Shown: positions 3,001-54,875 of the stretch, piece after piece
Position numbering within the stretch: position 1 is the stretch's first letter
Layout of the letters: the number at the start of each line of letters is the position of its first letter
Virus record (IMG/VR): IMGVR_UViG_3300045988_107814
Span: 96,001 to 160,000 of that record
Strand: one strand, 5' to 3'
Origin: a virus
DNA length: 64,000 bases
Position numbers and translations under genes: made by a program
Notes under the pieces: generated by a model
The model's database searches: none
Told to the model about the DNA's origin: nothing
What the model saw: only the letters and a program-made list of their open reading frames with translations

Positions 3001-6000
3001 TTAGATAATACGAATCCATTTGTTAGTGCTATATTTAACTTTATGGAATCTATGAACAGAGTTGTTAAAGCTCCATTTGCATTAGCAGCAGCTTCTCTAG
3101 GTAGTGGTCTTGAAGTTATTTCTAGTAACTCTGCTGATAATGGTGGATCTGCTCAAACTGTAAATGATTCTAGTGGTAATACTGGAAGTTCAACAGCTTC
3201 TACTAATAATGCTTCTTCTGGTTCTACATCTTCTAAGAGTAGTGGAGGATTCTTAAGTAAAGTAGCAAGTAAAGGTAAAAGTATATTAAAGAAAATTGGT
3301 GGTGCATTTAAGAGTCTATTTGGTAGAGGTGCTGATGATGAATATACCGATGATACAGGTTATGGTGATGATCCATTCCATATTTATCAAAGAGACTATA
3401 AGAGATCATATAAAACAAATGGTGATACAGAAAATCAAACAGTAGCAGATTCTGGTTGTGGCCCAGCCGCAGCAGCTTCTCTATTAAGAATGTATGGTAA
3501 AAACGGTAATATGAATAATGCTGTTAGTTATGCACTTAATAATAACTACAAGGAAGTAAATGGTGGTACTTATCCACAATACTTCAATGATTATCTAAAT
3601 AAAAATGGTATTAGTACTAACTCTAATGCAAATAATAGAGATGTGGTAAATAGTCTTATTCATAATAAACCAGTTATATTAATGGGTCAAGATGCATCCA
3701 ATAGTGGTAGAACTCCATATGGATCTAAGTATTCTCACTATGTCGTTGCTAGAGGACTTGATTCTAATGGTAATGTAATAGTAGAAGATTCTGAAGATAA
3801 AAAGGGTTCTACTAGATATAGCCTTGCTGATACTTTAAGAAATTCTTCTGTAAGAATTACTACAGGTAGTGGAAAATATGGCAGAGCTAAAGGCACTGTG
3901 TTAGATAACTTTGTTAGTGGTGTTAACTCTGTAATGGCTTCTTCTGTTACAAGCATCTTAGGCAACTTATCTAGCAGTATAGGATATAGCGATAGTAGTA
4001 GCGGTAGCACATCATCTAGTGGTAATACTGGTAGTAGCGGTGGTACTGTTATCGCTGGTACTAATGGAACAATAAGTGATCTAACAAAAGACTCCGATGT
4101 TAAAACAAAATGTGGTTATACAGCTGAACAATTAACAGCCGCTATTAAAGCTATACATCCAGAAGGTTGCTCTGCTGAACAATTCCCAGAAGCAGCTATT
4201 AATGTAGAAAAATCTAAAGGTCTTAATGCATTATTTATAATTGCTGCTGCTATTCAAGAACATGGATGGGATGGTAAAGTTGGTATTAATACAACAGGTG
4301 CTAACTGGGGTAACTGGAATGTATTTAATATTATGGGTAGTCCACATGCTTCTAATGGTCGTTGGAAAGACTATAATGATCTTACTGATGCATTTAGTGG
4401 ATTCGGTGATCTTATTCTAGGTAGCACTTATTATGGTGCTGGATTAAAAACGCCTGAAGCGATTGGTAATAGATATTGTCCTCCAGATTTAGAAGAAAAT
4501 GCAAATTACGGTCAATGGGGCGAATCAGTATGTAATGTTGCTCAAAATATTGTAAAACACATTCCTACTTCTGGATCTGGTCGTGGTAATAATAAGATTG
4601 AACCAGCAATAAATAAAAAATTAATAAATAATATTACAGACTCTATTAGTTATGGAACAGTATCTGCTCTTAATGGCGGATCTGGTAAATGGGGTCGTGA
4701 TGGTGAAGAAGATACAACAACCGCTGATGATACCACAACAACAGATACTTCAACAGAAACAACTGATAGTACTACAACTACTACTAATACATCATCATCT
4801 AGTTCTAGTAGTGCTTCTGAATCTGCTGGATTATTAAGTAAACTAACTGAATATACAACTAATCTTACTAAGGGTGTATTTGGAGATTTTTACGATGCAT
4901 TATATGGTAAAACAGAAACAAGTACAACCACACCAACATCTGGTAATACTATTACTGGTACATTATCTTCTGGTGATTCAATTGCTAATATGAAAACCTT
5001 ATTTAGTTACTTTACATCTCAAGGATTAAGTGATAATTTAGCTGCCGGTATTCTTGGTAATATTAAAGCTGAATCTGGTTTTAATCCTAACGTATTATAC
5101 GGTGGTGCTATTGGTACTGTATTTGATCAGCAATCATTAGCATATGGTCTAATTCAATGGACAGGTACTGATGCAAGAGCTAGCTTATATAACTGGTGTA
5201 CTGCAAATAACTGTGATCCTGATACACTGGATGGCCAAGCTAAATGGATTGTTGCTCAAATTAAAGGTATAAATCTAAACGATGAAACAAATACTGCTAA
5301 TGCTTCTAAATTTAATGGTAGTACTGGTAGAGGTACTATGACATATAATGCTCAATTATTTAATGCTAGAGGTTCATTTGAAACATTTAATACTTATTCT
5401 ATAGAAAAAGCTACAAAATTATGGCTAGAATGTGTAGAAAGACCTGGTGATGTAAATAGTTTCTTACAAGCTAGAGTAGAAAATGCTAAGCAAATACTTG
5501 CAGAATGTAAAGGAACTAGCAGTGGTTCTGGAAGAGGTAGAGGAATAATTAATAAAGCTTTATCTAAACCTAATAAACTAAGAAAGAGAAGATTTGGCAG
5601 AGGTATTTGGGGTCGTGATGGTGAAGAAGAAACAACTACCACTACAACAACCACCACAACGACAGAAGCAGCAGATACTTCTACATCTGAAGATGAAAAT
5701 ACTGGTGTAACATATAGTAGTCCTATAGGTCCAACTAAACCAGATAACTCTACTGATGATACTACAACAACCAATGATTCCGATACAACATCGAGTACAG
5801 GTAGTAATGGTAGTGATACTCTATTAAGTAAACTTACAGATTACGCTTCTAAAGCTGTTAAGGGAGTATATGGTGATTTCTATGACGCATTATATGGATC
5901 TGATACATCTTCCAATGAATCTGATGCTTCATTATCTAATGTAACTGGAAATAGCACTATAACTCAAGGAACTGGTGTGCCATATGAAACTTATAAACAC

Positions 6001-9678: not shown

Positions 9679-10383
9679 ATGAGTAGTTTAAAAAAGAAAA
9701 TGCAAGATTATAAAAATAAATATGGAGATATACCGCTAGATTATAAAGAACGTCTAGAATGGATGTGTGATAAATATAAAATATCTTCAAATGATATGGA
9801 TTATATTTTGTATGAGCGTGATAGAAGAATGAATTCTCTATATTATACTAGTATAAAAGTTATATTATATCAAGTACCTCAAGGTGCTAAACGTCCTAGA
9901 TATAGGTTTGTTAATAGAAAAAATCTTGTGTCAGCGGCTATTTCAGATCCAGGCTACATACATGTATATTCTCCTGACGCTGCTAGTAACCACGATTATA
10001 TGAAAAGGCTTGTAAATGAACAAGAATTCATACAATTAGAACATCTTATTTGTACTCCATGTGATGTTTGCTATAAAGCCTATTTCCCTACGCCTAAATC
10101 ATATAATAAGACTGAAACGTTTATGGCTGAAATAGGACTCGATAGACCACTAGTAAAACCAGATTTTGATAATATAGAAAAACTATATGCAGATATGTAT
10201 AATAGTAATGTATGGATTGATGATGCTCTTACTGTAGATGCTGCAATAGGAAAATTCTATTCTATATTACCAAGAGTTGAAATTGATCTTAATTATCTTA
10301 ATGCTGTATATTGTAAGCAGCAATATGATAATATAACAAGTAGAAAAGATTATAAAGAAAACATGAACTTATCATTTATTTAA
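9679..10383 (+). CDS. rusA: RusA-like Holliday-junction resolvase with an N-terminal extension
   Basis: KPDFDNIEKLYADMYNSNVWIDDALTVDAAIGKFY matches the RusA core D-x-DN-x-x-K...W-x-DD-x-x-V. AAGGAGG RBS. Confidence 0.65.
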   Translation: MSSLKKKMQDYKNKYGDIPLDYKERLEWMCDKYKISSNDMDYILYERDRRMNSLYYTSIKVILYQVPQGAKRPRYRFVNRKNLVSAAISDPGYIHVYSPDAASNHDYMKRLVNEQEFIQLEHLICTPCDVCYKAYFPTPKSYNKTETFMAEIGLDRPLVKPDFDNIEKLYADMYNSNVWIDDALTVDAAIGKFYSILPRVEIDLNYLNAVYCKQQYDNITSRKDYKENMNLSFI

Positions 10384-21496: not shown

Positions 21497-22828
21497 ATGG
21501 GTATTTACACATCTAATAGATACTTACAGTCTGAAGATTATGTATCTGACATTCCTGTTAATGAAGCATATGATGCTGCATTTGGTTGTGCACATGCACT
21601 TGCTGAATGTGAAATTAATGATATGGCTTTATTTGAAAGTGCTATCTATAGTGATATTGCAGAAGTTAGAGCTATGCAAGAAGGCTATGGTTATGTTAAC
21701 GAAAATGCATTTACTGATGTACTTAAGAGAGTTAAAGAAATTTTCATTAAGCTTATCGGTAAGATTAAAGGTATTTTTGCATCTTTCCTTACTAAATTAA
21801 CATCTGCATTTAAGAGTGGTGAAGATTTAGTAAAGAAGTATAGTACTAAGATTAACTCTTATCAGAATTGGAAAGGCTTTAAGTGTAAGAAGATCCGTAA
21901 GCCTATAGCAAGCGATATCAAAACTGCAATTTTGGACAAAGATGTTTTTGGAACATTTATAAATCAATACAAAACTGGAGCAATAAAATATACATTAAAT
22001 ATAAAGACAGATTCTAATGAAGCTAGTATATCAATTAATACTAAACTTAAAGACTATACTAAGGTAGAAGATATTAAAGAAGCAGATACTGAAGATCTTA
22101 AAAATGCTATTCTCGAAAAGCATATTACAGGCTGTGATGATATCAAGGAAATTACAAAGAGTGTAATGGATAAGTTATTTGAAGAAGAAGAAACAATTGA
22201 TGATGAAGTTAAAGATGGTCAATACTTTAATGCAAATTGGATCAAGGGTGCTTTAGTAGATAGTAAGGACTGGATCAAAGAAGTTAAAAAGTATAACGAT
22301 GAAGTTAATAAAGGTATAAATACAATAATTGATAATCTTAAAAAGACTAATGATAACTTAAATAATTTAATCGATAAAAAGGGAGATATGTATTTTCAAC
22401 ATGGTGCTGAATATGCTAAAAACTTTGCAAGAACTGATGGTAATACTAACAAAGTAATAAAAAATTATTACGGATTTAAAGATGAAAAAGAGACAAAGCA
22501 TAATGTAGCTGATGATAGATATATTAATGGTCAGAAACAAATTGATCCTGATTATCAATTAAGATCTGATAAGGGAGTGTATAGTTTATCTGATGTTCAA
22601 AAGGCAGTTCAAGCATTACAGAAGCTTGCTACTAATCACTCTGAAGTAATTACTACTGTTACAAATGAGTATATGAAAACTGTTAAATTCACTATTGCTC
22701 AGGCTAAGAAACTATATACTGCCGCAGCAGTTTGGTCTTCTGGTGTTCATAAAGAATCTGTAGAATTTTCTGAAGCTATGGGTGATGTAGCATTAGAACA
22801 ATTCTATTCTAATATGGAATCTCTTTAA
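21497..22828 (+). CDS. MGIYT-family paralogue 1, 443 aa
   Basis: AAGGAG RBS and N-terminus MGIYTSNRYL. It shares three 100%-identical DNA blocks with paralogue 2. Confidence 0.9.
   Translation: MGIYTSNRYLQSEDYVSDIPVNEAYDAAFGCAHALAECEINDMALFESAIYSDIAEVRAMQEGYGYVNENAFTDVLKRVKEIFIKLIGKIKGIFASFLTKLTSAFKSGEDLVKKYSTKINSYQNWKGFKCKKIRKPIASDIKTAILDKDVFGTFINQYKTGAIKYTLNIKTDSNEASISINTKLKDYTKVEDIKEADTEDLKNAILEKHITGCDDIKEITKSVMDKLFEEEETIDDEVKDGQYFNANWIKGALVDSKDWIKEVKKYNDEVNKGINTIIDNLKKTNDNLNNLIDKKGDMYFQHGAEYAKNFARTDGNTNKVIKNYYGFKDEKETKHNVADDRYINGQKQIDPDYQLRSDKGVYSLSDVQKAVQALQKLATNHSEVITTVTNEYMKTVKFTIAQAKKLYTAAAVWSSGVHKESVEFSEAMGDVALEQFYSNMESL
21554..21904 (+). repeat. Identical block 1 (351 bp) shared by paralogues 1 and 2
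   Basis: 21554-21904 reads identically to 22986-23336 (offset 1432) by eye. Confidence 0.85.
22052..22266 (+). repeat. Identical block 2 (215 bp) shared by paralogues 1 and 2
   Basis: 22052-22266 reads identically to 23490-23704 (offset 1438). Confidence 0.85.
22587..22822 (+). repeat. Identical block 3 (236 bp) shared by paralogues 1 and 2
   Basis: 22587-22822 reads identically to 23956-24191 (offset 1369). Confidence 0.85.
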
Positions 22829-22870
22829 AACTTTAATTATAAACATATAAATAAAATGTGTGTAAATCTT

Positions 22871-22898
22871 TTGATATTGAAAAGTATTAAAGTATATA
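22871..22898 (+). promoter_or_regulatory. Sigma-70-like promoter candidate
   Basis: TTGATA (22871-22876), a 16-nt spacer, then TATATA (22893-22898), about 28 nt upstream of the ATG at 22926. Confidence 0.3.
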
Positions 22899-22925
22899 AC
22901 AACACTAAACAAGGAGGTAAAATTA

Positions 22926-24197
22926 ATGGGTATTTATACATCTGGTAGATATCTGAATGAGGCATATGATTATGCTTCCGATGTTCCTGTTAATGAAGCA
23001 TATGATGCTGCATTTGGTTGTGCACATGCACTTGCTGAATGTGAAATTAATGATATGGCTTTATTTGAAAGTGCTATCTATAGTGATATTGCAGAAGTTA
23101 GAGCTATGCAAGAAGGCTATGGTTATGTTAACGAAAATGCATTTACTGATGTACTTAAGAGAGTTAAAGAAATTTTCATTAAGCTTATCGGTAAGATTAA
23201 AGGTATTTTTGCATCTTTCCTTACTAAATTAACATCTGCATTTAAGAGTGGTGAAGATTTAGTAAAGAAGTATAGTACTAAGATTAACTCTTATCAGAAT
23301 TGGAAAGGCTTTAAGTGTAAGAAGATCCGTAAGCCTGTTAATATTTCTGAAGGCATTATTACTAGTATTAATAAATTATTTGGAAATGAGTCAAGTGATT
23401 CAACTGGTATTGGTAATATCACATACACTATTAATTTAAAAAATACTGGCGATTCTACTAAAAGAATAGCACTTACTACCGGACTTAGAGACTATACTAA
23501 GGTAGAAGATATTAAAGAAGCAGATACTGAAGATCTTAAAAATGCTATTCTCGAAAAGCATATTACAGGCTGTGATGATATCAAGGAAATTACAAAGAGT
23601 GTAATGGATAAGTTATTTGAAGAAGAAGAAACAATTGATGATGAAGTTAAAGATGGTCAATACTTTAATGCAAATTGGATCAAGGGTGCTTTAGTAGATA
23701 GTAAAAAAGCTAAAGAAAAAGTAGAAAAGTATAATAAAAAATGTGTAGAAAATATCAATAAAATTATTGATAATCTTGATAGAGACGAGAAAGCAATTTC
23801 TGAACTTATCGGAAAAAATGTAGATAAATATAAAACAAAAGATACAAGTGCTGATATATCCTACTCTAATTCTGATAAAGGTAAAGTTAGTAAGACTGAT
23901 AAATTCAGTTATTCTGAAACTGATAATAAACCATCTGCTAGTTATGGTGTTAGTCTATCTGATGTTCAAAAGGCAGTTCAAGCATTACAGAAGCTTGCTA
24001 CTAATCACTCTGAAGTAATTACTACTGTTACAAATGAGTATATGAAAACTGTTAAATTCACTATTGCTCAGGCTAAGAAACTATATACTGCCGCAGCAGT
24101 TTGGTCTTCTGGTGTTCATAAAGAATCTGTAGAATTTTCTGAAGCTATGGGTGATGTAGCATTAGAACAATTCTATTCTAATATGGAATCTATCTAA
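22926..24197 (+). CDS. MGIYT-family paralogue 2, 423 aa
   Basis: AAGGAGG RBS and N-terminus MGIYTSGRYL. Mosaic relative of paralogue 1. Confidence 0.9.
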   Translation: MGIYTSGRYLNEAYDYASDVPVNEAYDAAFGCAHALAECEINDMALFESAIYSDIAEVRAMQEGYGYVNENAFTDVLKRVKEIFIKLIGKIKGIFASFLTKLTSAFKSGEDLVKKYSTKINSYQNWKGFKCKKIRKPVNISEGIITSINKLFGNESSDSTGIGNITYTINLKNTGDSTKRIALTTGLRDYTKVEDIKEADTEDLKNAILEKHITGCDDIKEITKSVMDKLFEEEETIDDEVKDGQYFNANWIKGALVDSKKAKEKVEKYNKKCVENINKIIDNLDRDEKAISELIGKNVDKYKTKDTSADISYSNSDKGKVSKTDKFSYSETDNKPSASYGVSLSDVQKAVQALQKLATNHSEVITTVTNEYMKTVKFTIAQAKKLYTAAAVWSSGVHKESVEFSEAMGDVALEQFYSNMESI

Positions 24198-25593: not shown

Positions 25594-25623
25594 CCTTTAT
25601 ATTATTATATAGGAGGTAAGTAA

Positions 25624-42180: not shown

Positions 42181-42248
42181 ATGTGTTACCTCCTTAATAT
42201 ACACATCTTAATCACTGGACACTATAATAATATGTAATAAAATTAATT

Positions 42249-42377: not shown

Positions 42378-42754
42378 GCTGCTGTGGTGAAATAGGCAGA
42401 CACGAGGGACTTTAACGAAAATTCTATAAGAAAATATTTTTATTTTCAAAGTCTAATGAAGAGAGTTTGGGTATATCATTAGAACCATTTTATATGGTAG
42501 ACAAGAGCAGCTTGGGAGGGATCCCTTGGCTGAATGTGGACTAAACGGTGAAACCTAACCCAATGGTAATACCGTGCCAAATAACAAGTAATTGTTATGT
42601 GCGTAGAGAATATACATCCACCATCTAGAACAGATGAAGATTGATTCCAGACTATCAAACTACAATTTAATTAAATTGTAGGTAGTGAAAACTATAGTAG
42701 TACGAAAATCCCTTTCTTAATTGAGTGCGGGTTCAAGTCCCGCCAGCAGCACCA
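42378..42754 (+). tRNA. trnL-UAA: tRNA-Leu (anticodon UAA) interrupted by a group I intron
   Basis: 5' exon is 42378-42412 and 3' exon is 42705-42754. Joined, they give acceptor GCTGCTG/CAGCAGC, a D-arm identical to the neighbouring tRNA-Leu, anticodon stem AGGGA/TCCCT, loop CUUAAAA, T-arm GCGGG-TTCAAGT-CCCGC and 3' ACCA. Confidence 0.85.
42413..42704 (+). ncRNA. Group I intron (292 nt, no ORF) between U34 and A35 of tRNA-Leu(UAA)
   Basis: The 5' exon ends in U and the intron ends in G (42704). AAAGTC (42448-42453) pairs with exon GACTT plus the first intron T (P1). ATTTT (42442-42446) pairs with the 3' exon AAAAT (P10). P2 hairpin is 42454-42459/42476-42481. Core-like strings are GAAACCTAA (42550-42558), GATGAAG (42633-42639) and CAGACTATC (42648-42656). 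P9-like hairpin is 42660-42668/42673-42681. Confidence 0.75.
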
Positions 42755-42837: not shown

Positions 42838-42881
42838 CCATTATGTGTCTCCAAAATATAATACTTTTATTCTCTATCTTG

Positions 42882-42905
42882 CTCTACAGGTTAATTCCTG
42901 TAGAG
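42882..42905 (+). terminator. Rho-independent terminator after the tRNA cluster
   Basis: CTCTACAGG-ttaatt-CCTGTAGAG followed by tctctcttttg. Confidence 0.7.
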
Positions 42906-42935
42906 TCTCTCTTTTGTAAAACTTCTTATTTTCGC

Positions 42936-43091
42936 ATATATATAATTATAGTGAATAAGAGATAATATTATACATATTAATCTCTTATATCAAAAACATG
43001 GAGGTCTGCATATTACTCCATACGTCACAAGGCAGACATTCATAAGTGTCAAAAGCTTATGATCCTAGACGTTAAAAGGGAAAGGAACATT
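42936..43091 (+). promoter_or_regulatory. Promoter-like box, 5' hairpin and conserved pseudoknot leader, copy A
   Basis: ATATATATAATTATAGTGAATA; hairpin 42957-42963/42980-42986; TATATCAA. Helix S1 is ATGGAG 42998-43003 / CTCCAT 43016-43021. Helix S2 is GTCTGC 43004-43009 / GCAGAC 43032-43037. Hairpin ATAAG-9 nt-CTTAT is at 43042-43060, followed by GATCCTAGACGTTAAAAGGGAAAGG and the ATG. Confidence 0.6.
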
Positions 43092-43463
43092 ATGAATATA
43101 ACTACAATGATTAACGCAAACTCCGTTGCTGAAATTGCTGAGTCCATTATTATGAATGCAATCATCGCTGCTGAAAAATTTAATGATGAAAGGCAGAATG
43201 CATTCATGAGACAGAGGATCACATTTGAGTGCAGCTCCAAGCTCAATCTGTTCTTTTCAATTGAGTTTTTGAAATCTATTAAGAATGGAGATGAATTGAG
43301 CTGTCATGCATTGGCATCTAGATTCGAAGAAGAATGCAATGATATCGATATTGCATGCGAAATGTATTATGATCAGATTAAAAGCAGTCTGACACTTATG
43401 AATGCATTGATAAACTATGCGAATGCATTGGATAAACTTAAGAAATTTTATCTCTGCGACTAA
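43092..43463 (+). CDS. Hypothetical small helical protein, 123 aa (cassette A)
   Basis: GGGAAAGG RBS before the ATG at 43092; the track start at 43059 lies inside the conserved leader. C/G-ending codon bias. Opposite orientation to the flanking genes. Confidence 0.75.
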   Translation: MNITTMINANSVAEIAESIIMNAIIAAEKFNDERQNAFMRQRITFECSSKLNLFFSIEFLKSIKNGDELSCHALASRFEEECNDIDIACEMYYDQIKSSLTLMNALINYANALDKLKKFYLCD

Positions 43464-43492
43464 TTCTACGATGTTACCAAACGGCAAAAATA

Positions 43493-43520
43493 ATAAACTG
43501 GGCTTGGCAACCCAGTTTAT
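43493..43520. terminator. Bidirectional terminator
   Basis: ATAAACTGGG-cttggcaa-CCCAGTTTAT with aaaaa on the left and tttttt on the right, between the stop at 43463 (+) and the stop at 43527 (-). Confidence 0.75.
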
Positions 43521-43526
43521 TTTTTA

Positions 43527-46500
43527 TTAAAATTTATGTCTGATAGTATAGTCTTGTTTTATTCCCATTATATCTTTAACTTGTCTATCTAGTTCTACTA
43601 ATCCTTTACCAGCTAATGTATACTGTAATGGAGCACAGCACATACGTTTATCAAACGATACCATAGATGCAATAGCATCGATAGGTTCATTAGGTCTATA
43701 GGATGATGTAGGTTCGTATCCTTTTTGAACAACTTCTTTAGCTACACCTTTTTGAGCACCTAGAAAAATTAGTTTATCACCAACAGAGAAGTCATCTTTA
43801 TAAGATACATATATTTCAATTAATACGCCATCTTCTATATTTTTTAGTTTTCCTTCTTGAGGAAGTTTCTGACAAGTATATTGTTTTGCTAGATTCTCAT
43901 CATATTTAGCAATTTGTTTTGCCTTAGCATTACGTTTTCTTTCATATTCAGATACTATCTTCTTTAATGACGGAGACATTTCATCTAGTTCACAAGTTCT
44001 ATAGATATTAATATCTTCTATAACACCTGTATTATTAGACTTAATTGGAATACGTCCAAGAGATGTTACTGTGTCTTCATCATCAACTAAGTTCTTTAAC
44101 AATACGTTTACATCATTATCTTCGAATGTATTCTGAATAATTAATAATGGATCTCCTTCTTGCACTTGATCTCCAACTTTAATCATATTGAATATATTTG
44201 TATTTTTAGATAATGTAACTGGTACTTCCATTATTACATTAGATGATAATGCGTCAGAAATATAACTAGATACAATACAGGAGTCTTCGAATCCTTTATC
44301 AGAAGTAATAATTGCTACTTTTGCTAATGTACCTTGATTATAAGTAGCACTATTATCATAACCACAATTAACACTATATGACATAGGATCATAAGCAATT
44401 AACTGACCTTTCTTTACTTTAGTACCGAGACCTTTATCTACTTCTAGTTTAACTGATGTATAAAAACCACCATCAGAGTTTTTATATACTTTATTATTAA
44501 GATCAACAAAATCAATACTACCATCATTATATTGAATAACAACATGATCATCATCACGTTCAACAACAGTACCATTGTCTTTAGCGTTAAAAGAGAATAC
44601 ATCTGGTGTGAACATTGTAAGAGCGTCATCCATACCATTTGTGATAAGTAATGGATCACCACCTGCAACTCTCATATCATGCTTACTTCTCTGTACATAT
44701 GACATTGCTAAACGGAATGGGTCATCATGAGTAGTACACATAGGAGTAAGATTTTCTGCTGTGGTCATTGTATTTACATCATTCATCTTAGATTTTTCAT
44801 TTGACTTATCAGAGATATATCCACGTTTACCGTTTATATTTGCATTAGTAGTCATAATACGGTCAACACCAACTGTAGCAGCGAAACCTGTAGACATTCC
44901 TAGAATATTTGTCATAGATTCGTCATAGGTACGCTTTTCTAGTGAATAAGATCTATCACTGTTAAGACCAGATAGTCCTTTAAATGAAGCCATACTATTA
45001 CTATTAGCATAGTTTAATTCATTAATTGTAGATAAGTCTGAACATGTATTATCCATCATTATTGCATCAATAATAGCAGATTGTTTTACTGTCATTGTAG
45101 CTTTACCGGTTTTCTTTAACTTTGTTCTATAATCAGCATAAGCCTTAGATAAAACTTTGTAAGCATAACCGGCTACAATTTCATTAGTTCTAAATCTATT
45201 ACCAGAAATATCTACATGCTTATTATATTTAGTATCTGATAATAAATTAGATGCATAGATTAATGCTTCACAAAAATCTTGTGGAAGATCATACATATTA
45301 CAAACACGTTGAGAGATAGGATCAAACATAAGATCGTAGAAGTTATCAAGACCATCTGCTTTAATCCTGCCACCAAAGTTATCTAACATTTCTGTCCACA
45401 TTGTCTTAGAGTTTACATCCTTAATAGAATAATCTATTGTATCGCATTCCTTTAATCCATTCATGAACAAAGAAGAATTATAATCAATTCTATATAATAA
45501 GAATGCATCCTTAAATTTAATAAGATCATGTGTAGTATAATCTATCTTGCTAGGACGTTTATCAGTAATTTCATAAGAAATAGCAGCTTTGTTAAGTGTT
45601 TTAATAAGGCCTTCACAATATGCACAAATAACAATTACTGGCATCTTGGTATTAAGAATAGATGCTTGAGAATATGCATATTTAACAGATGGCTTTGCTT
45701 CGTTATAATAAGTAGCGAATTCTTCATCTTTACACAATTCAGCAGCGATAATATTAGAGCATAAAATAGCTCCATCGCTATAGATAATCTTCTTTTCACT
45801 GGCATCATATCCAATAGGCAATCCTTTAGACAAGTCAATAATGTCTTGATATTTTTCTCTGATATCATCTTGATCAAAATAGAATGTAACGTTTTTATAT
45901 TTAATATAAGAATATGCTTTACCAATATCCATATAATCCATTGGGATTTCATATTTAAGAGCAGTTATAGCATTATTACCAGACATATTTGTAATAGATT
46001 TACCAGTATATTTAGACAATGCTTTTATAATTTTACCAGACACTACATTTGATTTACCAACAGCACTACCAAATGTACGGAAGAAAATCTTGTTATAATT
46101 TGTAGTAATTTGTGCTGTATCAAATTCTGTTTTTATAATAGGAAGATTTATTAACTGAGCATTAATTGTCTTATCATTACCTCTTAGTCTCATAAATCTA
46201 TTATTCTTGAACAAAGGAATATCGAATTTCAATTGGAATCTAGTACCGCCGATATCTTCACATTGTACAGTCCAAGTTTCTTTCAAATCTTCAGATGTAG
46301 TTGTATTTTCAACATCAACATTTCTGATACCAACTGGAACAGTTCTTGTAGAAAAGAAATCTAAGATAGCCATTATATCTTCGTCTACATTATATTCTTT
46401 ATTAAAATTAATGTATTGAAGATTATCCCATTGATCATTATTAATACTATTAATATTAGCAGAAGATACTGGTAATGGATCTTCACCTGTATCTTGGGAA

Positions 46501-48734
46501 TCTTCTAGCATTTGACTAATAGATTCACCTTTAACTTTTTTCTTTTTAAGATCATCACTAAGAGAATTTATTCTTGCTTTACGAGTTGCAGAAGCTTTAA
46601 TCTCTGTAGATTCTTCATCAGAAATATCTTGAATCAGATTAGCAATATAATCGTTATCAAGTTTTTCTAATGCTTCGTCTGTAGAAGTAGAATTTTGTGC
46701 AGCATCTTTAATACTCTCAACAAGTTCTTCTTTCTTTTTCTCTGTTACTTCCTTAGCTACTTCTTTCTCAGATTTTTCTACATTATTTTTATCTTTTACA
46801 GTTACTTTCTTTTGAGATACCTTTTCTATCTTCTCATCACTATTAGAAGAAGATGTAATTTCTTTTGATACTTTACCTAATGCTCCATATAGATTAACTT
46901 TTTTAGAATTCTCGATCTTATCTACAATATCAGTAACAATTGCATTAGGAGTATCTTTTACCATATCTTCATCATTAGGTACAATCTTATTAAAGATATT
47001 ATTTATATTAGATATAAATCTTTGTAGTTCGGATTTCTTAAATTCAGAAAAGTTAATCTTAAAATAAGAGTTTTTACCAAAGAAGAAAACGTTGTTATTT
47101 CCAAATATCTTCTTAAGTTCATCAAAATCATTACGCTTAACTAAACGTGTTATGAGACTTACAGGATTTAAAGATTTGGTATAATCTATTACATTTACAT
47201 CATCACTGTAGTAGTCTAAAACAGGAATAAAAATTGATTTAGTCTTATATTCTCTATCTATAGTAGAATTGTTCAGAAAACGTCTCAATGTTTCAGAATA
47301 TAACTTAATACCCTGTTCGCCCATCTTTTTATTATTCTCTATAAAGAGTTTATTGTAATAAGATACATCTACAAAAAGATTCATCTTATTATATGCTTCT
47401 ATATTTACTTTGGTAAATTGAATTGCAGGGCATTGAGCTTTGACAACTTTATATACGTCAAATAATTCTTTTTGATTTCTGATTCGTTCATTATACATAT
47501 ATTGACGTAGTCTATTATCAATGGCATCTTCAGTAAATATTTCATCACCAAAGAATACAGCATTATCGCCATATCTAAATCCTTCTGAATTAATTTCAGA
47601 TTCAGGAATTTGTGGAGATTTTTCTTTTTCTATATTAACCTTTATTAGATCAATATATACAACTGGATATTTATCTTTATTCTTACTGGTTTTACCAATA
47701 AACTTTAATGCCGTTGCTCTATCAATAAAATTACCATCTTGAATAATAGAAGTCTTGATATTTTGGATCAATAGTTTATCTCTATTTAAAGAATATACTG
47801 GAACAATTCTATTACCCTTAGATGCAATTTGTTTATTGATATCTCTATTATACATAACATCTCTAAATGTATAGATTAAATACATAGAGATTTCTTCTTT
47901 TTCATCATCGTCATCAAAATATGAATCTTCTAGATAAATTCCGAATTCATTACCATATATAGGATTCTTATGAGAAACACCAAAACCTGCAAGATTATCA
48001 TTTGTATCATAACATAGGGCTAGGAAATTAGCATTGGTTAACATTTCACATACATTTTTATAATCTCTTATATCTTTAATAAGTTTTTGACATTCTTTTA
48101 TATACTTATTAATATCCTTACCAGTATAGTATTCGAATCTATAATCTGTTAGAATTTTTAATGGAATACCACCAGAAGTTTTAACAGTAACTTCTTTCAA
48201 GCTTCTATAATATTTAGAGAATCTATTCTCTTCACCAACTTCAATATCAGTAATATTAAAGTGCTTTAGCTTTTTAATGATATTCTTAGCTAATGTTTTC
48301 TCATATTCTTTTGGACAATGATTAAACATTCTTATCGCTGCTCTAACATGTTCTTCATCATTGATAGGGTATGATCTAGTTTGAGGAATGCCAAATTCAC
48401 TATCAGATAACTCTTTTCTATCTTTAGTAGATAATTTAGATTCATTAATAAAAGAACTAATAAAATCGTCCTTATACTCAACAAATTCTTTTATCTGATT
48501 AGTATCTGCTTTGATAATAGCATCAATAGATTTATCAATATAATATGATCTAAACCATTTACGATTGTTTATAATTATATCACTATTAATCATTCTAATA
48601 GAAGATGATATATCAGATGTTAGTAGATAGATTAAACTTCCATGTTTATCATCATCTGGATTTAAAGGTATAAAAAGTCTGTTGTTCTTATTATACAGCT
48701 TTAAATTTTTCATATCTTTAATGTGTATAGACAT
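43527..48734 (-). CDS. 1735-aa protein with a C-terminal multisubunit-RNAP beta (RpoB)-like region fused to a long unrelated N-terminal part
   Basis: SFKGLSGLNSDRSYSLEKRTYDESMTNILGMSTGFAATVG (about 44945-44992) parallels GPGGL.R......R..H.S.YGR.CP.ETPEG. HDDPFRLAMSYVQRSKHD (about 44701-44740) parallels HDDANRALMG.NMQRQ. GDKLIFLGAQKGVAKEV (about 43745-43790) parallels GDK...RHGNKGV. ASMVSFDKRMCCAPLQYTLAGKG parallels PSRMN.GQ..E..LG. The protein ends before the GEME motif. Confidence 0.7.
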   Translation of the reverse strand: MSIHIKDMKNLKLYNKNNRLFIPLNPDDDKHGSLIYLLTSDISSSIRMINSDIIINNRKWFRSYYIDKSIDAIIKADTNQIKEFVEYKDDFISSFINESKLSTKDRKELSDSEFGIPQTRSYPINDEEHVRAAIRMFNHCPKEYEKTLAKNIIKKLKHFNITDIEVGEENRFSKYYRSLKEVTVKTSGGIPLKILTDYRFEYYTGKDINKYIKECQKLIKDIRDYKNVCEMLTNANFLALCYDTNDNLAGFGVSHKNPIYGNEFGIYLEDSYFDDDDEKEEISMYLIYTFRDVMYNRDINKQIASKGNRIVPVYSLNRDKLLIQNIKTSIIQDGNFIDRATALKFIGKTSKNKDKYPVVYIDLIKVNIEKEKSPQIPESEINSEGFRYGDNAVFFGDEIFTEDAIDNRLRQYMYNERIRNQKELFDVYKVVKAQCPAIQFTKVNIEAYNKMNLFVDVSYYNKLFIENNKKMGEQGIKLYSETLRRFLNNSTIDREYKTKSIFIPVLDYYSDDVNVIDYTKSLNPVSLITRLVKRNDFDELKKIFGNNNVFFFGKNSYFKINFSEFKKSELQRFISNINNIFNKIVPNDEDMVKDTPNAIVTDIVDKIENSKKVNLYGALGKVSKEITSSSNSDEKIEKVSQKKVTVKDKNNVEKSEKEVAKEVTEKKKEELVESIKDAAQNSTSTDEALEKLDNDYIANLIQDISDEESTEIKASATRKARINSLSDDLKKKKVKGESISQMLEDSQDTGEDPLPVSSANINSINNDQWDNLQYINFNKEYNVDEDIMAILDFFSTRTVPVGIRNVDVENTTTSEDLKETWTVQCEDIGGTRFQLKFDIPLFKNNRFMRLRGNDKTINAQLINLPIIKTEFDTAQITTNYNKIFFRTFGSAVGKSNVVSGKIIKALSKYTGKSITNMSGNNAITALKYEIPMDYMDIGKAYSYIKYKNVTFYFDQDDIREKYQDIIDLSKGLPIGYDASEKKIIYSDGAILCSNIIAAELCKDEEFATYYNEAKPSVKYAYSQASILNTKMPVIVICAYCEGLIKTLNKAAISYEITDKRPSKIDYTTHDLIKFKDAFLLYRIDYNSSLFMNGLKECDTIDYSIKDVNSKTMWTEMLDNFGGRIKADGLDNFYDLMFDPISQRVCNMYDLPQDFCEALIYASNLLSDTKYNKHVDISGNRFRTNEIVAGYAYKVLSKAYADYRTKLKKTGKATMTVKQSAIIDAIMMDNTCSDLSTINELNYANSNSMASFKGLSGLNSDRSYSLEKRTYDESMTNILGMSTGFAATVGVDRIMTTNANINGKRGYISDKSNEKSKMNDVNTMTTAENLTPMCTTHDDPFRLAMSYVQRSKHDMRVAGGDPLLITNGMDDALTMFTPDVFSFNAKDNGTVVERDDDHVVIQYNDGSIDFVDLNNKVYKNSDGGFYTSVKLEVDKGLGTKVKKGQLIAYDPMSYSVNCGYDNSATYNQGTLAKVAIITSDKGFEDSCIVSSYISDALSSNVIMEVPVTLSKNTNIFNMIKVGDQVQEGDPLLIIQNTFEDNDVNVLLKNLVDDEDTVTSLGRIPIKSNNTGVIEDINIYRTCELDEMSPSLKKIVSEYERKRNAKAKQIAKYDENLAKQYTCQKLPQEGKLKNIEDGVLIEIYVSYKDDFSVGDKLIFLGAQKGVAKEVVQKGYEPTSSYRPNEPIDAIASMVSFDKRMCCAPLQYTLAGKGLVELDRQVKDIMGIKQDYTIRHKF

Positions 48735-48802
48735 ACTATTTACTCCTTTCGCAAGTTATTATAAGAATGTTTTCGTACGTGAAATACTAAAGAATAATAT
48801 CT

Positions 48803-48944
48803 ATATATTATTATAGTGAATAGGAGACATAAATCTACCTATATCAATAACTGGAGACTTACAATTACTCCAGTCGTCAAAAGGTAAGTAATCATAAGTG
48901 TCAAAAACTTATGATCCCAGACGTTAAAGGGGAAAGGTATTATC
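48803..48944 (+). promoter_or_regulatory. Promoter-like box, 5' hairpin and conserved pseudoknot leader, copy B
   Basis: TATATATTATTATAGTGAATA; hairpin 48821-48841; TATATCAA. S1 is CTGGAG 48851-48856 / CTCCAG 48868-48873. S2 is ACTTAC 48857-48862 / GTAAGT 48884-48889. Hairpin ATAAG-9 nt-CTTAT is at 48894-48912, followed by GATCCCAGACGTTAAAGGGGAAAGG and the ATG. Confidence 0.6.
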
Positions 48945-49496
48945 ATGGCAACAATTATTATCAATACTATCACTTGCACATTTTCATCTATCATCAATAC
49001 AATCAAAAATGTATGGTCTAAGATCATGCACTTTTTATTTGTATATGAAGACGATGAAGAAGCTGTAAGAGAAAGAGAGGATTGCGAATTCGCAATCAAA
49101 TTTGGCAAGATTGCTGTTAGCATCTTACTTGTTATTGCATTGTTTGTTACTGGTGTAAATATATATAAAACATATTTGCGTAAAAATGGTAAACTAACAA
49201 TAACAGTATACTGCACATCCAATACCGAACATTATGACACCGATCCTGGTTGGGCAGATTGTCGTTTCACAGATAAATTGGTAGAGAAGATCGAAAGCCA
49301 TGAGATTGATCTCTGCGGAACAAAATTATCTTCTGTATATAAAGGAGATGATTACGAAATTTCTAATTCCGTAGAAGTTTACTTCGACGGAAAGGAAGCA
49401 TCTGATCCTACAGCAGTGGATCATTTGGAATTTGTTGGTCTTGAAGAATATGATGGAACTACTGATAAGAGGTGGGTCGTTGATTACAAAGACTAA
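48945..49496 (+). CDS. Hypothetical membrane-anchored protein, 183 aa (cassette B)
   Basis: One hydrophobic segment FGKIAVSILLVIALFVTGVNIY. C/G-ending codon bias. Has its own leader and terminator. Confidence 0.8.
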   Translation: MATIIINTITCTFSSIINTIKNVWSKIMHFLFVYEDDEEAVREREDCEFAIKFGKIAVSILLVIALFVTGVNIYKTYLRKNGKLTITVYCTSNTEHYDTDPGWADCRFTDKLVEKIESHEIDLCGTKLSSVYKGDDYEISNSVEVYFDGKEASDPTAVDHLEFVGLEEYDGTTDKRWVVDYKD

Positions 49497-49522
49497 TCAA
49501 ATCTTACATGGTAAAAAGAACG

Positions 49523-49545
49523 AGGGACCGTTTAAAACGGTCCCT
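49523..49545. terminator. Bidirectional terminator
   Basis: AGGGACCG-tttaaaa-CGGTCCCT followed by tattttttatt, between the stops at 49496 (+) and 49552 (-). Confidence 0.75.
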
Positions 49546-49551
49546 TATTTT

Positions 49552-52559: not shown

Positions 52560-54875
52560 TTACATCATATTAGATACATAATAATCAGTATCATAAGCTG
52601 TAACAAATCTCACACTATCATTATCTTCAATAATATGTTGGTCATTTGAAAAAATAATATCAGCCGTTTTTGGATCAGATACTAGATTACCTCTTGCACA
52701 AGCATTGAGAACAATAAGATCATACAAGTTAGGTCTGCCAATATCAATAATGGCTTTTACAATTTCAATGACTTTATTAGAACCGTTTTCAATTGTATTA
52801 GTAATATTAGCAAGAATATCATATGTCATATCACACCAGATAAACTCTCTATTAATACAATCGAAGATAACGGGCACACAAGTAGTAGATTCAGCATTAA
52901 CATCGATTCTATCTTGGACAGTAGACGGTTCAAAGATTTCTCCGCTATTCATATCGTTTCTGTACATCCATCCAAAACAACAATTCTTCATAGAACTGAA
53001 ATGTTCTCTAGAGTAGTTATGAACAGAGAGGATTACATATCTACCTCCAGTTTTGATAACCTTGTTAATATCTATATCAATAAACTCTGCTACACCAGCA
53101 CCATCTTCTGGACCACCATTTGTGATATCTCCAGAATGGCAACCGATATCAGACTTTAGATTAGTAAATGAAATATGGGATATAGATTTAAAATCTTCGC
53201 TAAATACACCAGCAGACAAATCTACATCTACATTACCGGTCCACCAAATAAAACTTCTTAGAATATTGGTACTATCGGAAATACTAATATGACTTCCTCT
53301 CGTAATATTCTTGGAAGATGGACTTGCACTTCTAAGATTAAATGGAACAATAAAGTTCTTAAAATCTTTGTCTACATAAACATTTCCTAACTTGTCTAGA
53401 TTAGATTGTTTACTAATAATAGCCTTAGCACAAACACCTGCTACTTCAGTACAAATATCAGACTCCAGATCTTTTAGGTTATAAGGGATAACTTTAATCT
53501 TAGCAGTAGATCCTTTGAGGAAAAATACTCTACTAGTCTTTTCATCACCAGAAGCTCTATGAGAGAAATATTGGAAAAGTTGAATTAGAATCGGAACAGG
53601 AATTTTATCAGCAACCTTTTTAAATTCTCTAATAACAAGCTTGCTATCATTAGGATTTTTACAAGCACTTAGAATTCTGTTTAGATTTCTTGCAAACTCA
53701 CCTGGACGAGTAGAACACATACCACAAATAGAAACAATAAGATTTTGATTATTATGACTAAAATCATCAATAAGTTTAGTCAAATGACCGTTAAACGATC
53801 TTATAGGACACTTACTGTAGTTTCTTAAGATGAAAAACATCTTAACTGCATTTGGGTATTGTTTACTGTATGTGTAAGGATGAACTCTCTCACCAACTCT
53901 TAACCATCTTTCTCTATATCTATACATATCTTCAATCATTCTCGGATTTAAACCACTGATGTCAACCGAAGGATTGTGAGAAGTAAAATAATCAAGTTCT
54001 TCATTCTGAATAGCAATATTATCAAGAACACTCATTAGAATTTTTCTATGTTTTCTTGGAATATTTCTATAATGACAAGGTTTAGATAATGAAGAATCAC
54101 TAGTATTAACATATGCTAGATATCTTAAGATATCTGTAGCTGTTTTATACTTACTTTTAATAAAGTCAATTCCTTTTGTATAGAAAAGTAACAAAGATAA
54201 ACTTGCTAAATTTTCCTTGTTAGGAATTTCAATATCGTTTGGAATGATAAAATCACCAAAGTATTTGAGTACTTTATATGCATCAATATTTCTCTCATAA
54301 TAGGTATTCGAACTAAATGTATTGATATCATTTTTATCAATAACGGATAGCGAAACCTTACTAGACATTAAGTTAGTAGTGATCTCTTTTACCATTTGAA
54401 TTGCTTCATATGGTGTGATGATTGAAATAGTCTTAAGCTTTTCAAGTTTATCTATTTCAATTAACGGAGTTCTTTGTTTTGTTTCATAATACGGAACTAA
54501 TCTTCCATCAGACATATAGTGAATAATTGCATTGATATATAATTCAGCATTACTCATATCCATTACTTGTTGAGGGAAATTAGGATACATACAATTGTAT
54601 TCAACATCGTCCCCTAAGTATTGCTTAATTGAAATAAGCAATACTTTATTATACCAATCTACAATATCTTCTTTATTGAATTTTAGAGCCAAAATATTAA
54701 ATGATTTTTCATCAAGTTTGAATCCATAATCATATAGATTCTTACAGATAGTAGCAACCATTTCTTTGGTCTCTGGATTAAATTCACAAGGATAAGGTAA
54801 TTTGCTATCATTATAAGGGCTGATAACACAGCCCTTTCTTCTGAAGAGTACGATTGATAAACTTGTTTTGTTCAT
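52560..54875 (-). CDS. 771-aa protein with a C-terminal TerD-like domain
   Basis: VDVDLSAGVFSEDF...FTNLKSDIGCHSGDITNGGPEDGAGVAEFIDIDINKV...GGRYVILSVHNYS (about 52980-53250) follows the TerD pattern vDLD......hSGDn.tG.g.GDdE.I.vdL. The N-terminal ~520 aa are unrecognised. AAGGAG RBS. Confidence 0.6.
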   Translation of the reverse strand: MNKTSLSIVLFRRKGCVISPYNDSKLPYPCEFNPETKEMVATICKNLYDYGFKLDEKSFNILALKFNKEDIVDWYNKVLLISIKQYLGDDVEYNCMYPNFPQQVMDMSNAELYINAIIHYMSDGRLVPYYETKQRTPLIEIDKLEKLKTISIITPYEAIQMVKEITTNLMSSKVSLSVIDKNDINTFSSNTYYERNIDAYKVLKYFGDFIIPNDIEIPNKENLASLSLLLFYTKGIDFIKSKYKTATDILRYLAYVNTSDSSLSKPCHYRNIPRKHRKILMSVLDNIAIQNEELDYFTSHNPSVDISGLNPRMIEDMYRYRERWLRVGERVHPYTYSKQYPNAVKMFFILRNYSKCPIRSFNGHLTKLIDDFSHNNQNLIVSICGMCSTRPGEFARNLNRILSACKNPNDSKLVIREFKKVADKIPVPILIQLFQYFSHRASGDEKTSRVFFLKGSTAKIKVIPYNLKDLESDICTEVAGVCAKAIISKQSNLDKLGNVYVDKDFKNFIVPFNLRSASPSSKNITRGSHISISDSTNILRSFIWWTGNVDVDLSAGVFSEDFKSISHISFTNLKSDIGCHSGDITNGGPEDGAGVAEFIDIDINKVIKTGGRYVILSVHNYSREHFSSMKNCCFGWMYRNDMNSGEIFEPSTVQDRIDVNAESTTCVPVIFDCINREFIWCDMTYDILANITNTIENGSNKVIEIVKAIIDIGRPNLYDLIVLNACARGNLVSDPKTADIIFSNDQHIIEDNDSVRFVTAYDTDYYVSNMM

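Follow-up and report, generated by a model that had tools for sequence, protein, structure and literature searches.

What can a 5' leader do for genes that share nothing with one another? The question is raised by a window of 64,000 nt, the whole stretch of viral DNA analysed here (IMG/VR record IMGVR_UViG_3300045988_107814, positions 96,001 to 160,000), in which a ~150-nt repeat stands on the plus strand directly before two genes, one on either side of an RNA-polymerase beta-like gene (Table 1). The proteins encoded behind copy A and copy B, of 123 and 183 amino acids (aa), have no detectable similarity to each other. An earlier note, written from the two copies, had read the repeats as leaders with two covarying helices in the topology of an H-type pseudoknot, and had proposed that they co-regulate the two cassettes as a translational operator or a small-ligand sensor. 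We find that each repeat belongs to a copy of one modular cassette for early-gene expression, in which a predicted early promoter is followed by a structured leader. Judged by the substitutions among its homologues, the leader contains an H-type pseudoknot of two crossing helices (a b a' b'), each backed by compensatory changes, and it qualifies as a real RNA element that lies outside any Rfam family and is absent from the literature searched.

Leader copies and homologues

Copies A and B are 77-85% identical when aligned across ~150 nt, and blastn matches them to each other within the window at E = 1e-26. The 25-mer CATAAGTGTCAAAARCTTATGATCC has two exact occurrences in the window against 0 expected, diagnostic 21-25-mers of the repeat occur exactly twice each against 0-0.2 expected, and a covariance model run with its filters off returned only the two copies. 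The model's weak third match (54370-54456, minus strand; 19 bits, E = 0.06-0.4) falls within a 771-aa gene and was discounted. The coordinates and sequences that the earlier note gave for its helices S1 and S2, here called P1 and PK, proved correct throughout: the closing pair of S1 changes from A-T to C-G, four of the six S2 pairs are replaced by double changes between the copies, and the 3' strand of S2 lies 10 nt past S1. The shared downstream blocks it described (CGTCA.AAG, an ATAAG hairpin and GATCC.AGACGTTAAA.GGGAAAGG) are likewise present. The homologous repeat is real at its stated length of ~150 nt, but its first ~20 nt form a promoter at the DNA level and are not part of the RNA.

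Pattern scans and the contigs of RNA-polymerase homologues supplied 12 distinct leader sequences from related phage contigs of 212-225 kb. Type I leaders comprise the two window copies, L060, L063, position A and position B of L135 (the latter truncated) and L137. Type II leaders are clearly diverged and have the same layout; they were found at L002, L003, L014, L037, L134, L138, L148, L150, L151, L154, L155 and L158. A minimal form occurs at L143. A covariance model built on type I alone detects type II at E ~1e-4. Retrieval by RNA-polymerase homology gave one contig place for each of 11 proteins and two for P0009, and of at least 117 loci from a metagenome scan with a loose promoter-plus-box pattern, about 8 were true leaders among the matches listed. 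Exact-pattern scans of IMG/VR and GTDB genomes found no type I leaders, and near and distant searches of cultured-phage DNA records with the leader gave no match. Many relatives have other leaders at these positions. Further members of the leader family surely exist.

Fold of the leader

From its predicted 5' end the leader RNA runs through a hairpin (P0), a conserved single-stranded box, the H-type pseudoknot formed by P1 and PK, the helices P2 and P3 in full-length members, and P4; the element is compact, at ~90 nt. PK joins the loop of P1 to a segment 9-10 nt downstream of P1, and P3 begins 0-2 nt past PK. The P1 loop of copy A consists of the PK 5' strand and loop L2 (ATATTA). With loop lengths of 0-1 nt (L1), 1-8 nt (L2) and 9-10 nt (L3), P1 and PK appear by inspection to be sterically compatible as simultaneous helices. 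The box, TATATCAA in both window copies, reads TATATCGA in further type II copies, and its consensus as RNA is UAUAUC(A/G)A. The two-helix fold first proposed stands in both its helices and turns out to be part of a larger structure with P0, P2, P3 and P4; we hold this anatomy to be very probably correct.

Compensatory changes carry the case. When six type I leaders are aligned by MAFFT in the ordinary way (86% mean column identity), the four helices are paired in 96.5% of cells and 10 pairs have changed on both sides. None of 500 shuffles reached the observed pairing or covariation measures, and partners slid by 1-3 columns were only 28-42% paired. PK is 100% paired in this set, with five of its six pairs changed on both sides; for P3 the count is four of seven. 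Across 12 leaders of both types and the minimal form, aligned with N padding, 93.6% of cells are paired against 28-39% with slid partners. Pairs changed on both sides here number 4/6 in P1, which is 94-97% paired and whose double changes span the two leader types, 5/6 in PK, which is 98.5% paired, 5/8 in P3 and 1/5 in P2. At least six versions of PK occur (GTCTGC/GCAGAC, ACTTAC/GTAAGT, ATCTGT/ACAGAT, ACTTGC/GCAAGT, GCTTGC/GTAAGC and GATGC/GCATC), as does a G-U variant (GATGT/GCATC); no version breaks the helix, and by our count they require at least seven double events with no disruption. The crossing of the two helices, drawn by the earlier note from two copies, is therefore kept with covariation in further homologues, and a conserved, functional-looking RNA structure common to both cassettes is borne out.

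The remaining helices are supported to different degrees. In L137 the P3 stem is wholly different (TATAGA/TCTATA) and its loop TGTAAAAG is retained. The sequence of P0 varies with pairing kept, both in copy B (TAGGAGA/TCT-A-CCTA) and in type II (TAGAG/CTCTA). P4, a C-rich/G-rich hairpin, is predicted by RNAfold in most members. Both strands of its stem are shortened in concert (CC/GG) in L060 and, as a separate event, in L002; it shows no double substitution, and its support is moderate. P2 is the weakest of the helices, being invariant in type I and ACCT/GGGT in type II, which amounts to one double change and one G-U pair. The minimal leader L143 has P1 and PK only, without P2 and P3, and its Shine-Dalgarno sequence (SD) lies 2 nt after the knot; because this member keeps P1 and PK alone, the knot is taken as the core of the element.

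A single knot of such topology is not rare by chance, with 6+6-bp knots in ~1% of 100-nt tiles of the window (12/1278) and 5+5-bp knots in ~15%, and for this reason the case for the helices rests on covariation. The same evidence bears on whether the repeat has any function as RNA. It could be a DNA homology patch or recombination linker left by gene shuffling, with helices that arose by chance; the frequency of such knots and the mosaic leader L063, in which a copy-B-like 5' part is joined to a copy-A-like P1 and L3, would suit that account. Yet the double substitutions in PK occur without one disruption, P1 and P3 behave similarly, and substitutions cluster in the helix strands within flanking sequence that is 85-100% identical, all of which leaves an absence of RNA function extremely improbable. 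A conserved upstream open reading frame was also considered and rejected, since other leaders have CTG or GTG where P1 of copy A has ATG.

Predicted early promoter

The first ~20 nt of each repeat match the consensus of the early promoters used by the virion RNA polymerase of phage AR9, which was defined experimentally as AAATATATATTAT-(6N)-G+1 (PMC5312081). Both boxes have the 6-nt spacer and the start G of that consensus, agree with it at 10-11 of 13 positions, and stand in a phage that encodes an AR9-group RNA-polymerase beta-like protein. This protein is only ~30% identical to its AR9-group relatives, however, and it is from the likeness that we deduce both the start site and the recognition of the boxes by a virion polymerase. 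In the relative L006 the SD comes directly after TTATAGTG, so that the transcript start must lie at that point. The promoter class and the starts at G42953 and G48818 are accordingly predictions, under which early transcripts would be made by the virion RNA polymerase with 5' untranslated regions (UTRs) of 139 nt (copy A) and 127 nt (copy B). A reading of the TATATCAA box as a sigma-70-type promoter was discarded, as the minus-strand TTGATA-N17-TAATAT of copy A is not kept in copy B or in type II.

The 5' block (…TATATA(A/T)TTATAGTGAATA) also precedes other window genes with short leaders, at 42234 (minus), 32371 (minus), 39733 (plus) and 17643 (plus), and it occurs in relatives. AR9-type boxes (TATAT.AT.ATAGTGA-like) lie before window genes at these four positions and at 25598 (plus). 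Behind most of the other boxes come a P0-like 5' hairpin and a short leader (~30-100 nt) that lacks the pseudoknot, and taken together the further boxes outline the early regulon of the phage. The pseudoknot leader is present at only some of the early-promoter boxes in the window.

A modular cassette

Identity between the copies is confined to promoter and leader and falls to background level from the start codon on. At least 10 unrelated orphan gene families sit behind the leader, single genomes carry 3-5 copies of it (type II), and the leaders of window copy A and L060 are near-identical with unrelated genes downstream. The order in each window cassette is AR9-type early promoter, 5' UTR, SD, small orphan gene, bidirectional terminator. 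Because unrelated families follow it, it is present in multiple copies and its homology ends at the start codon, the leader behaves as a mobile regulatory cassette for early genes. The idea that it co-regulates the two cassettes of the window holds insofar as they share the element, which is however not private to them.

This arrangement bears on two further explanations. The earlier note had likened the leader to that of T4 gene 32, where the encoded protein would bind the knot of its own mRNA and spread over an unstructured tract, and a 5' pseudoknot in a phage mRNA leader is indeed common to both. The region from knot to SD, however, is either structured (P3, P4) or nearly absent (L143), with no long AU-rich tract, and autogenous control is not possible because at least 10 unrelated proteins are encoded behind this one leader; the analogy did not survive, and we give an operator of this type next to no credence. 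The leader could also act on transcription, as an attenuator or as a put-like antiterminator working on the phage RNA polymerase. It sits immediately downstream of an early promoter and occurs in at least two copies per genome, as in phage HK022, which has putL and putR. In a search for intrinsic terminators, these bracketed each cassette and none lay inside either leader or just after it, which speaks against antitermination and led us to reject attenuation. The units are moreover single genes with a strong bidirectional terminator facing a convergent gene, so read-through would yield only antisense RNA, and a device at this level is very improbable.

Two observations concern the carriers of type II leaders. 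The proteins behind L002, L003, L014, L037, L134, L148, L150, L151, L154, L155 and L158, otherwise unrelated, start with Asn/Thr/Ala-rich tracts over the first ~20 codons (for example MNTDTNINNTIASATTTA, MTNTTTATNNAIASATT and MAKNTTTTNNT), and the codons of these tracts are G-poor and A- and C-rich (AAC, ACA, ACT). The tract may reflect selection at the RNA level for an unstructured start region, or a shared N-terminal signal. The contig CAADXH010000018.1 (212,719 bp; L148-L151) carries four type II copies and is filed in GTDB under the metagenome-assembled genome (MAG) 'Bacilli bacterium HGM10607'. It has the size of a whole genome of this phage clade, and is either a mis-binned phage or a hint of a host among gut Bacilli.

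Possible modes of action

We tentatively favour a reading in which the knot would act as RNA, in cis and after transcription. Small early genes would form a regulon controlled through the leader as a common handle, and the knot would be the docking site of a hypothetical trans-acting factor (a protein of phage or host, an RNase or the 30S subunit of the ribosome) which, once docked, would set translation, mRNA lifetime or both for some of the early mRNAs. The presence of the leader at only some early promoters suits selective control, and the terminators that bracket the cassettes without entering the leaders were counted in favour of post-transcriptional action. The P3 loop UGU(C)AAAA and the box are kept while stems drift; in type I the loop survives even a full replacement of the P3 stem, as would fit a contact surface.

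Several results weigh against this reading. P1, P3 and the loops differ wholly between types I and II, in phages that are 81% identical in the RNA-polymerase protein, and a factor that reads sequence would consequently have had to co-evolve with them. In other relatives the orthologous gene has a leader with a different small pseudoknot or a plain hairpin, an arrangement no less compatible with a generic structural role than with a specific operator. The unpaired probability from SD to AUG equals that of dinucleotide-shuffled leaders in 12/12 cases, which leaves no sign in silico that the leader affects initiation in cis; the folding used a nested model, with knots outside it, and within that model it also led us to reject SD occlusion or insulation. 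As to the structure itself, the alignment that joins types I and II was made by hand and guided by structure, and the cell counts overstate independent events through near-identical copies within one genome.

The different leaders at orthologous positions deserve description of their own. In several relatives the orthologue of the cassette B gene (a ~185-aa gene by the start of the RNA-polymerase gene) has a different, classical H-type pseudoknot, found on the minus strand at L141 ~9840-9910, L136 ~2785-2870, L139 ~9833-9900, L142 ~9829-9900, L144 ~3522-3600 and L147 ~306-390. It takes the form (C)CCG, 2-3 nt, a 5-6-nt strand b, CGG-AA and the complement b' (for example CCCGAAAGTGTACGGAATACACT, CCCGAAGATGTGCGGAATACATC and ACCGACAGCATACGGAATATGCA), with strong covariation in the b/b' helix and with CCCG and CGGAA fixed; a scan of L141, the one small-knot locus covered, at Rfam gathering thresholds returned tRNAs only. 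Plain hairpins occupy the cassette B position in L003, L138 and L145. At the cassette A position of L143 (~6429-6620, minus strand) the same early-promoter box is followed by an unrelated ~165-nt leader with hairpins of its own (e.g. GGAACAG…TGTTCC), to which the covariance model gives no match.

A stabiliser or insulator that needs no trans-acting factor is a doubtful but serious candidate, and docking is ranked only slightly above it. Here P0 and a robust knot would block RNase J-type 5'-to-3' decay and decay initiated by endonucleases, and the elements would fold alone, so that any gene behind the cassette is expressed predictably. Placement before many unrelated genes with a border at the start codon, helices whose sequences drift freely while structure is kept, and the other structured elements at orthologous positions all suit it. 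P0 lies within 4 nt of the predicted 5' end, the SD core is unpaired in predicted folds, and a Firmicute is the probable host, judging by the SD-rich genes and by a relative that was binned into a Bacilli MAG. On the other hand, the predicted openness of the ribosome-binding site is the same in native and shuffled leaders. A plain hairpin would also suffice for the task, which leaves the fold of four to five helices, the P3 loop and the UAUAUC(A/G)A box without explanation, and P0 alone is enough for most of the window's early-promoter genes.

The riboswitch proposed in the earlier note, an H-type pseudoknot aptamer for a small ligand, fared poorly. A pseudoknot near the SD is what such a switch would have, P2 and P4 could serve as competing pairings at the SD flank, and as no known class matches it would found a new one. 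The loops, however, diverge from one type to the other (ATATTA against A or AA for L2; ACGTCACAAG, AAACCTCAA or AAAACAAAG for L3), and apart from the box almost no unpaired position is invariant across both types and L143. The genes behind the leader are unrelated phage orphans without family matches rather than transport or metabolic genes. Neither a terminator-type expression platform nor, in nested-model folding, a conserved SD-sequestering alternative is visible, P4 reaches the SD at its 5' edge only, and the cassette is multi-copy and restricted to one phage clade. A riboswitch has no better than a slight probability, and neither small-ligand sensing nor masking of the SD is supported as the mode of action.

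Genomic context

The features of the locus are collected in Table 1. The two coding regions flank an RpoB-like gene, as had been noted, and their products gave no match in searches of Pfam, PHROG and PADLOC; the cassette A protein has an orthologue in L135 that is 59% identical. The terminator hairpin to the left of cassette A is syntenic in the relatives L002 and L003. The 1735-aa product of the intervening gene, which is context and not part of the element, matches PHROG 3148 'RNA polymerase beta subunit' at E = 4e-129. Its nearest cultured relatives, ~30% identical, are found in AR9/PBS1-type Bacillus phages, in Staphylococcus and Listeria jumbo phages and in phiR1-37, and relatives at 69-97% identity lie on uncultivated contigs of 212-225 kb. 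The source is best explained as an uncultivated jumbo phage of ~215 kb, distantly akin to AR9/PBS1, with its own multisubunit RNA polymerase. The protein also has an N-terminal DUF6582 (PF20223) at residues ~100-142, and ~600 residues precede its RNA-polymerase-homologous region.

Table 1. Positions of the two cassettes, their leader features and neighbouring features in the window
Feature	Positions	Strand	Description
Terminator left of cassette A	42881-42916	+	Intrinsic, also delimited as 42881-42906; follows upstream tRNA cluster; 10-bp stem GCTCTACAGG/CCTGTAGAGT, then T-run; left border of cassette A
Repeat, copy A	42934-43094	+	
Early-promoter box, copy A	42934-42953	+	GCATATATATAAT, TATAGT, predicted start G42953; 10/13 consensus positions
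P0, copy A	42957-42986	+	AAGAGAT 42957-42963 / ATCTCTT 42980-42986; 4 nt from predicted 5' end; read from sequence
Single-stranded box, copy A	42986-42993	+	TATATCAA; invariant in 12/12 aligned leaders
P1 (earlier S1), copy A	42998-43021	+	ATGGAG 42998-43003 / CTCCAT 43016-43021
PK (earlier S2), copy A	43004-43037	+	GTCTGC 43004-43009 / GCAGAC 43032-43037
P2, copy A	43022-43072	+	Closing helix; ACGTC 43022-43026 / GACGT 43068-43072; encloses PK 3' strand and P3
P3, copy A	43040-43062	+	TCATAAG 43040-43046 / CTTATGA 43056-43062; loop TGTCAAAAG
P4, copy A	43063-43086	+	TCCT 43063-43066 / GGGA 43078-43081; loop carries P2 3' strand; abuts SD
SD, copy A	43080-43086	+	GAAAGGA
Cassette A gene	43092-43463	+	123-aa orphan protein, no family match
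Terminator, cassette A	43492-43521		Bidirectional; between cassette A gene and convergent RNA-polymerase beta-like gene
RNA-polymerase beta-like gene	43527-48734	-	1735 aa; between the cassettes
Repeat, copy B	48799-48947	+	
Early-promoter box, copy B	48799-48818	+	ATCTATATATTAT, TATAGT, predicted start G48818; 11/13 consensus positions
P0 and box, copy B	48821-48847	+	TAGGAGA 48821-48827 / TCT-A-CCTA 48834-48841; box TATATCAA 48840-48847
P1, copy B	48851-48873	+	CTGGAG 48851-48856 / CTCCAG 48868-48873
PK, copy B	48857-48889	+	ACTTAC 48857-48862 / GTAAGT 48884-48889
P2, copy B	48875-48923	+	CGTC 48875-48878 / GACG 48920-48923
P3, copy B	48891-48915	+	ATCATAAG 48891-48898 / CTTATGAT 48908-48915
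P4, copy B	48916-~48932	+	CCC 48916-48918 / GGG about 48930-48932
SD, copy B	48932-48937	+	GAAAGG
Cassette B gene	48945-49496	+	183-aa orphan protein with hydrophobic segment, no significant family match
Terminator, cassette B	49522-49546		Bidirectional; closes cassette B

Two further features of the window were observed. At 42378-42753 on the plus strand a tRNA gene is apparently split by an insert of ~290 nt, with a 5' half at 42378-42413 (…GGCAGACACGAGGGACTTTAA) and a 3' half at about 42705-42753 (AAAATCCC…GGTTCAAGTCCCGCCAGCAGCACCA); the insert is conserved in the relatives L001 and L147. ARAGORN made no call there and Rfam gave no group I intron match at E <= 1. The gene may be an intron-containing tRNA(Leu-UAA)-like gene. 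At 21536-24197 on the plus strand, three direct repeats of 242-300 nt, 97-99% identical and spaced 1369-1438 nt apart, indicate a recent tandem duplication of a ~1.4-kb segment or gene.

Comparison with known systems

A scan of the whole window against Rfam 15 at gathering thresholds returned tRNAs only, and scans of two leader slices (266-301 nt) at E <= 10 gave chance matches of at most 19 bits. The earlier note had been unable to place the leader in a riboswitch class, and in these scans no known RNA family matches it. In the literature searched, structured leaders on many genes are rare in phages and none is described for jumbo phages with their own RNA polymerase; our searches found nothing comparable to a multi-gene structured leader in such phages. 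The paper on the AR9 promoters (PMC5312081) does not contain the term 'hairpin' and appears to describe no structured pseudoknot leader. The element is multi-copy, backed by covariation and tied to a defined promoter class, hence directly testable, and it points to a post-transcriptional layer over a subset of early genes in AR9-like giant phages.

The nearest likeness in architecture is to the pistol ribozyme (Rfam RF02679), which is defined by P1, P2, P3 and a pseudoknot that links the loop of P1 with the left P2/P3 junction, and which is common in Firmicutes and their phages (PMC4604425, PMC6154101). The leader has the same four-helix topology, with P1, a 6-bp PK to the left P2/P3 junction, P3 right after the knot and P2 closing. 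PK directly adjoins P1 and is separated from P3 by 0-2 nt, so that P1, PK and P3 could stack on one another, and a purine-rich AAG stands before the PK 3' strand. A self-cleaving ribozyme, whether a divergent pistol or a new class, would process early mRNA just upstream of the SD. However, the leader slices give no RF02679 match even at E <= 10, and the ten highly conserved nucleotides are not found. The right P3/P2 junction of pistol is strictly 2 nt, usually GU, and is the cleavage site (PMC4604425), whereas here it is CCTA, CCCA, CCA, CCT, CCC or CC and never GU, with 3-5 nt in 11 of 12 leaders and a 2-nt CC in L002. The conserved catalytic nucleotides are absent, as is an equivalent of G40-C41-G42 after the PK 3' strand, P1 carries the extra 1-8-nt loop L2, P2 is weak in type II (3-4 bp), and a natural minimal variant (L143) does without P2 and P3. 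By sequence comparison the element may have a pistol-like fold but is not a member of the pistol family, and self-cleavage has a small probability.

It is unlikely, though less so, that the P1-PK-P3-P2 domain is a new catalytic or nuclease-directed RNA fold, be it a ribozyme of pistol architecture with a different active site or a knot that blocks RNase J-type 5'-to-3' decay, two variants to which that judgement applies jointly. A nuclease-resistant knot would be a bacterial-virus counterpart of the exonuclease-resistant RNAs of flaviviruses. If a pistol-like fold were catalytic or nuclease-resistant, it would found a new class of RNA and be of use as an expression part in Firmicutes, and a new fold would mean that a jumbo-phage clade processes or protects the mRNAs of a shuffled set of early genes.

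Other pseudoknot leaders are more distant. With that of T4 gene 32 the leader shares an H-type pseudoknot upstream of the ribosome-binding site, but P3 and P4 fill the space where a long unstructured tract would be expected, it is a multi-copy element before many unrelated genes and not autogenous, and its loop geometry differs. The H-type pseudoknot riboswitches (preQ1-I/-II, SAM-II/-V and guanidine-III) resemble it in having a small knot near the SD and an A-rich third loop; it differs from them in lacking an Rfam match and pocket nucleotides conserved between types, in controlling orphan phage genes and in placing the SD outside the knot. The 5' stabilisers of Firmicutes and their phages, such as the aprE leader and the polypurine element of phage SP82, are simple hairpins or ribosome-binding sites. 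Like them the leader gives an early phage mRNA a hairpin within a few nucleotides of its start, with a strong, purine-rich ribosome-binding site behind it, but they leave its conserved pseudoknot domain unexplained.

As a genomic module, the leader invites comparison with the promoter-early stem-loop (PeSL) cassettes of T4-type phages, composite motifs of terminator, early promoter and stem-loop that are repeated in the genome, flank small variable orphan genes and mark the borders of modular gene shuffling (PMC2839356, PMC4122927). The promoter here is of the AR9 virion-polymerase type and not of the sigma-70 type, and recombination through the cassette is suggested by mosaicism only. Unlike the PeSL motifs, the conserved module reaches ~130 nt into the transcript and includes a covarying multi-helix pseudoknot; it shows orphan early genes being shuffled behind a ready-made unit of promoter plus leader.

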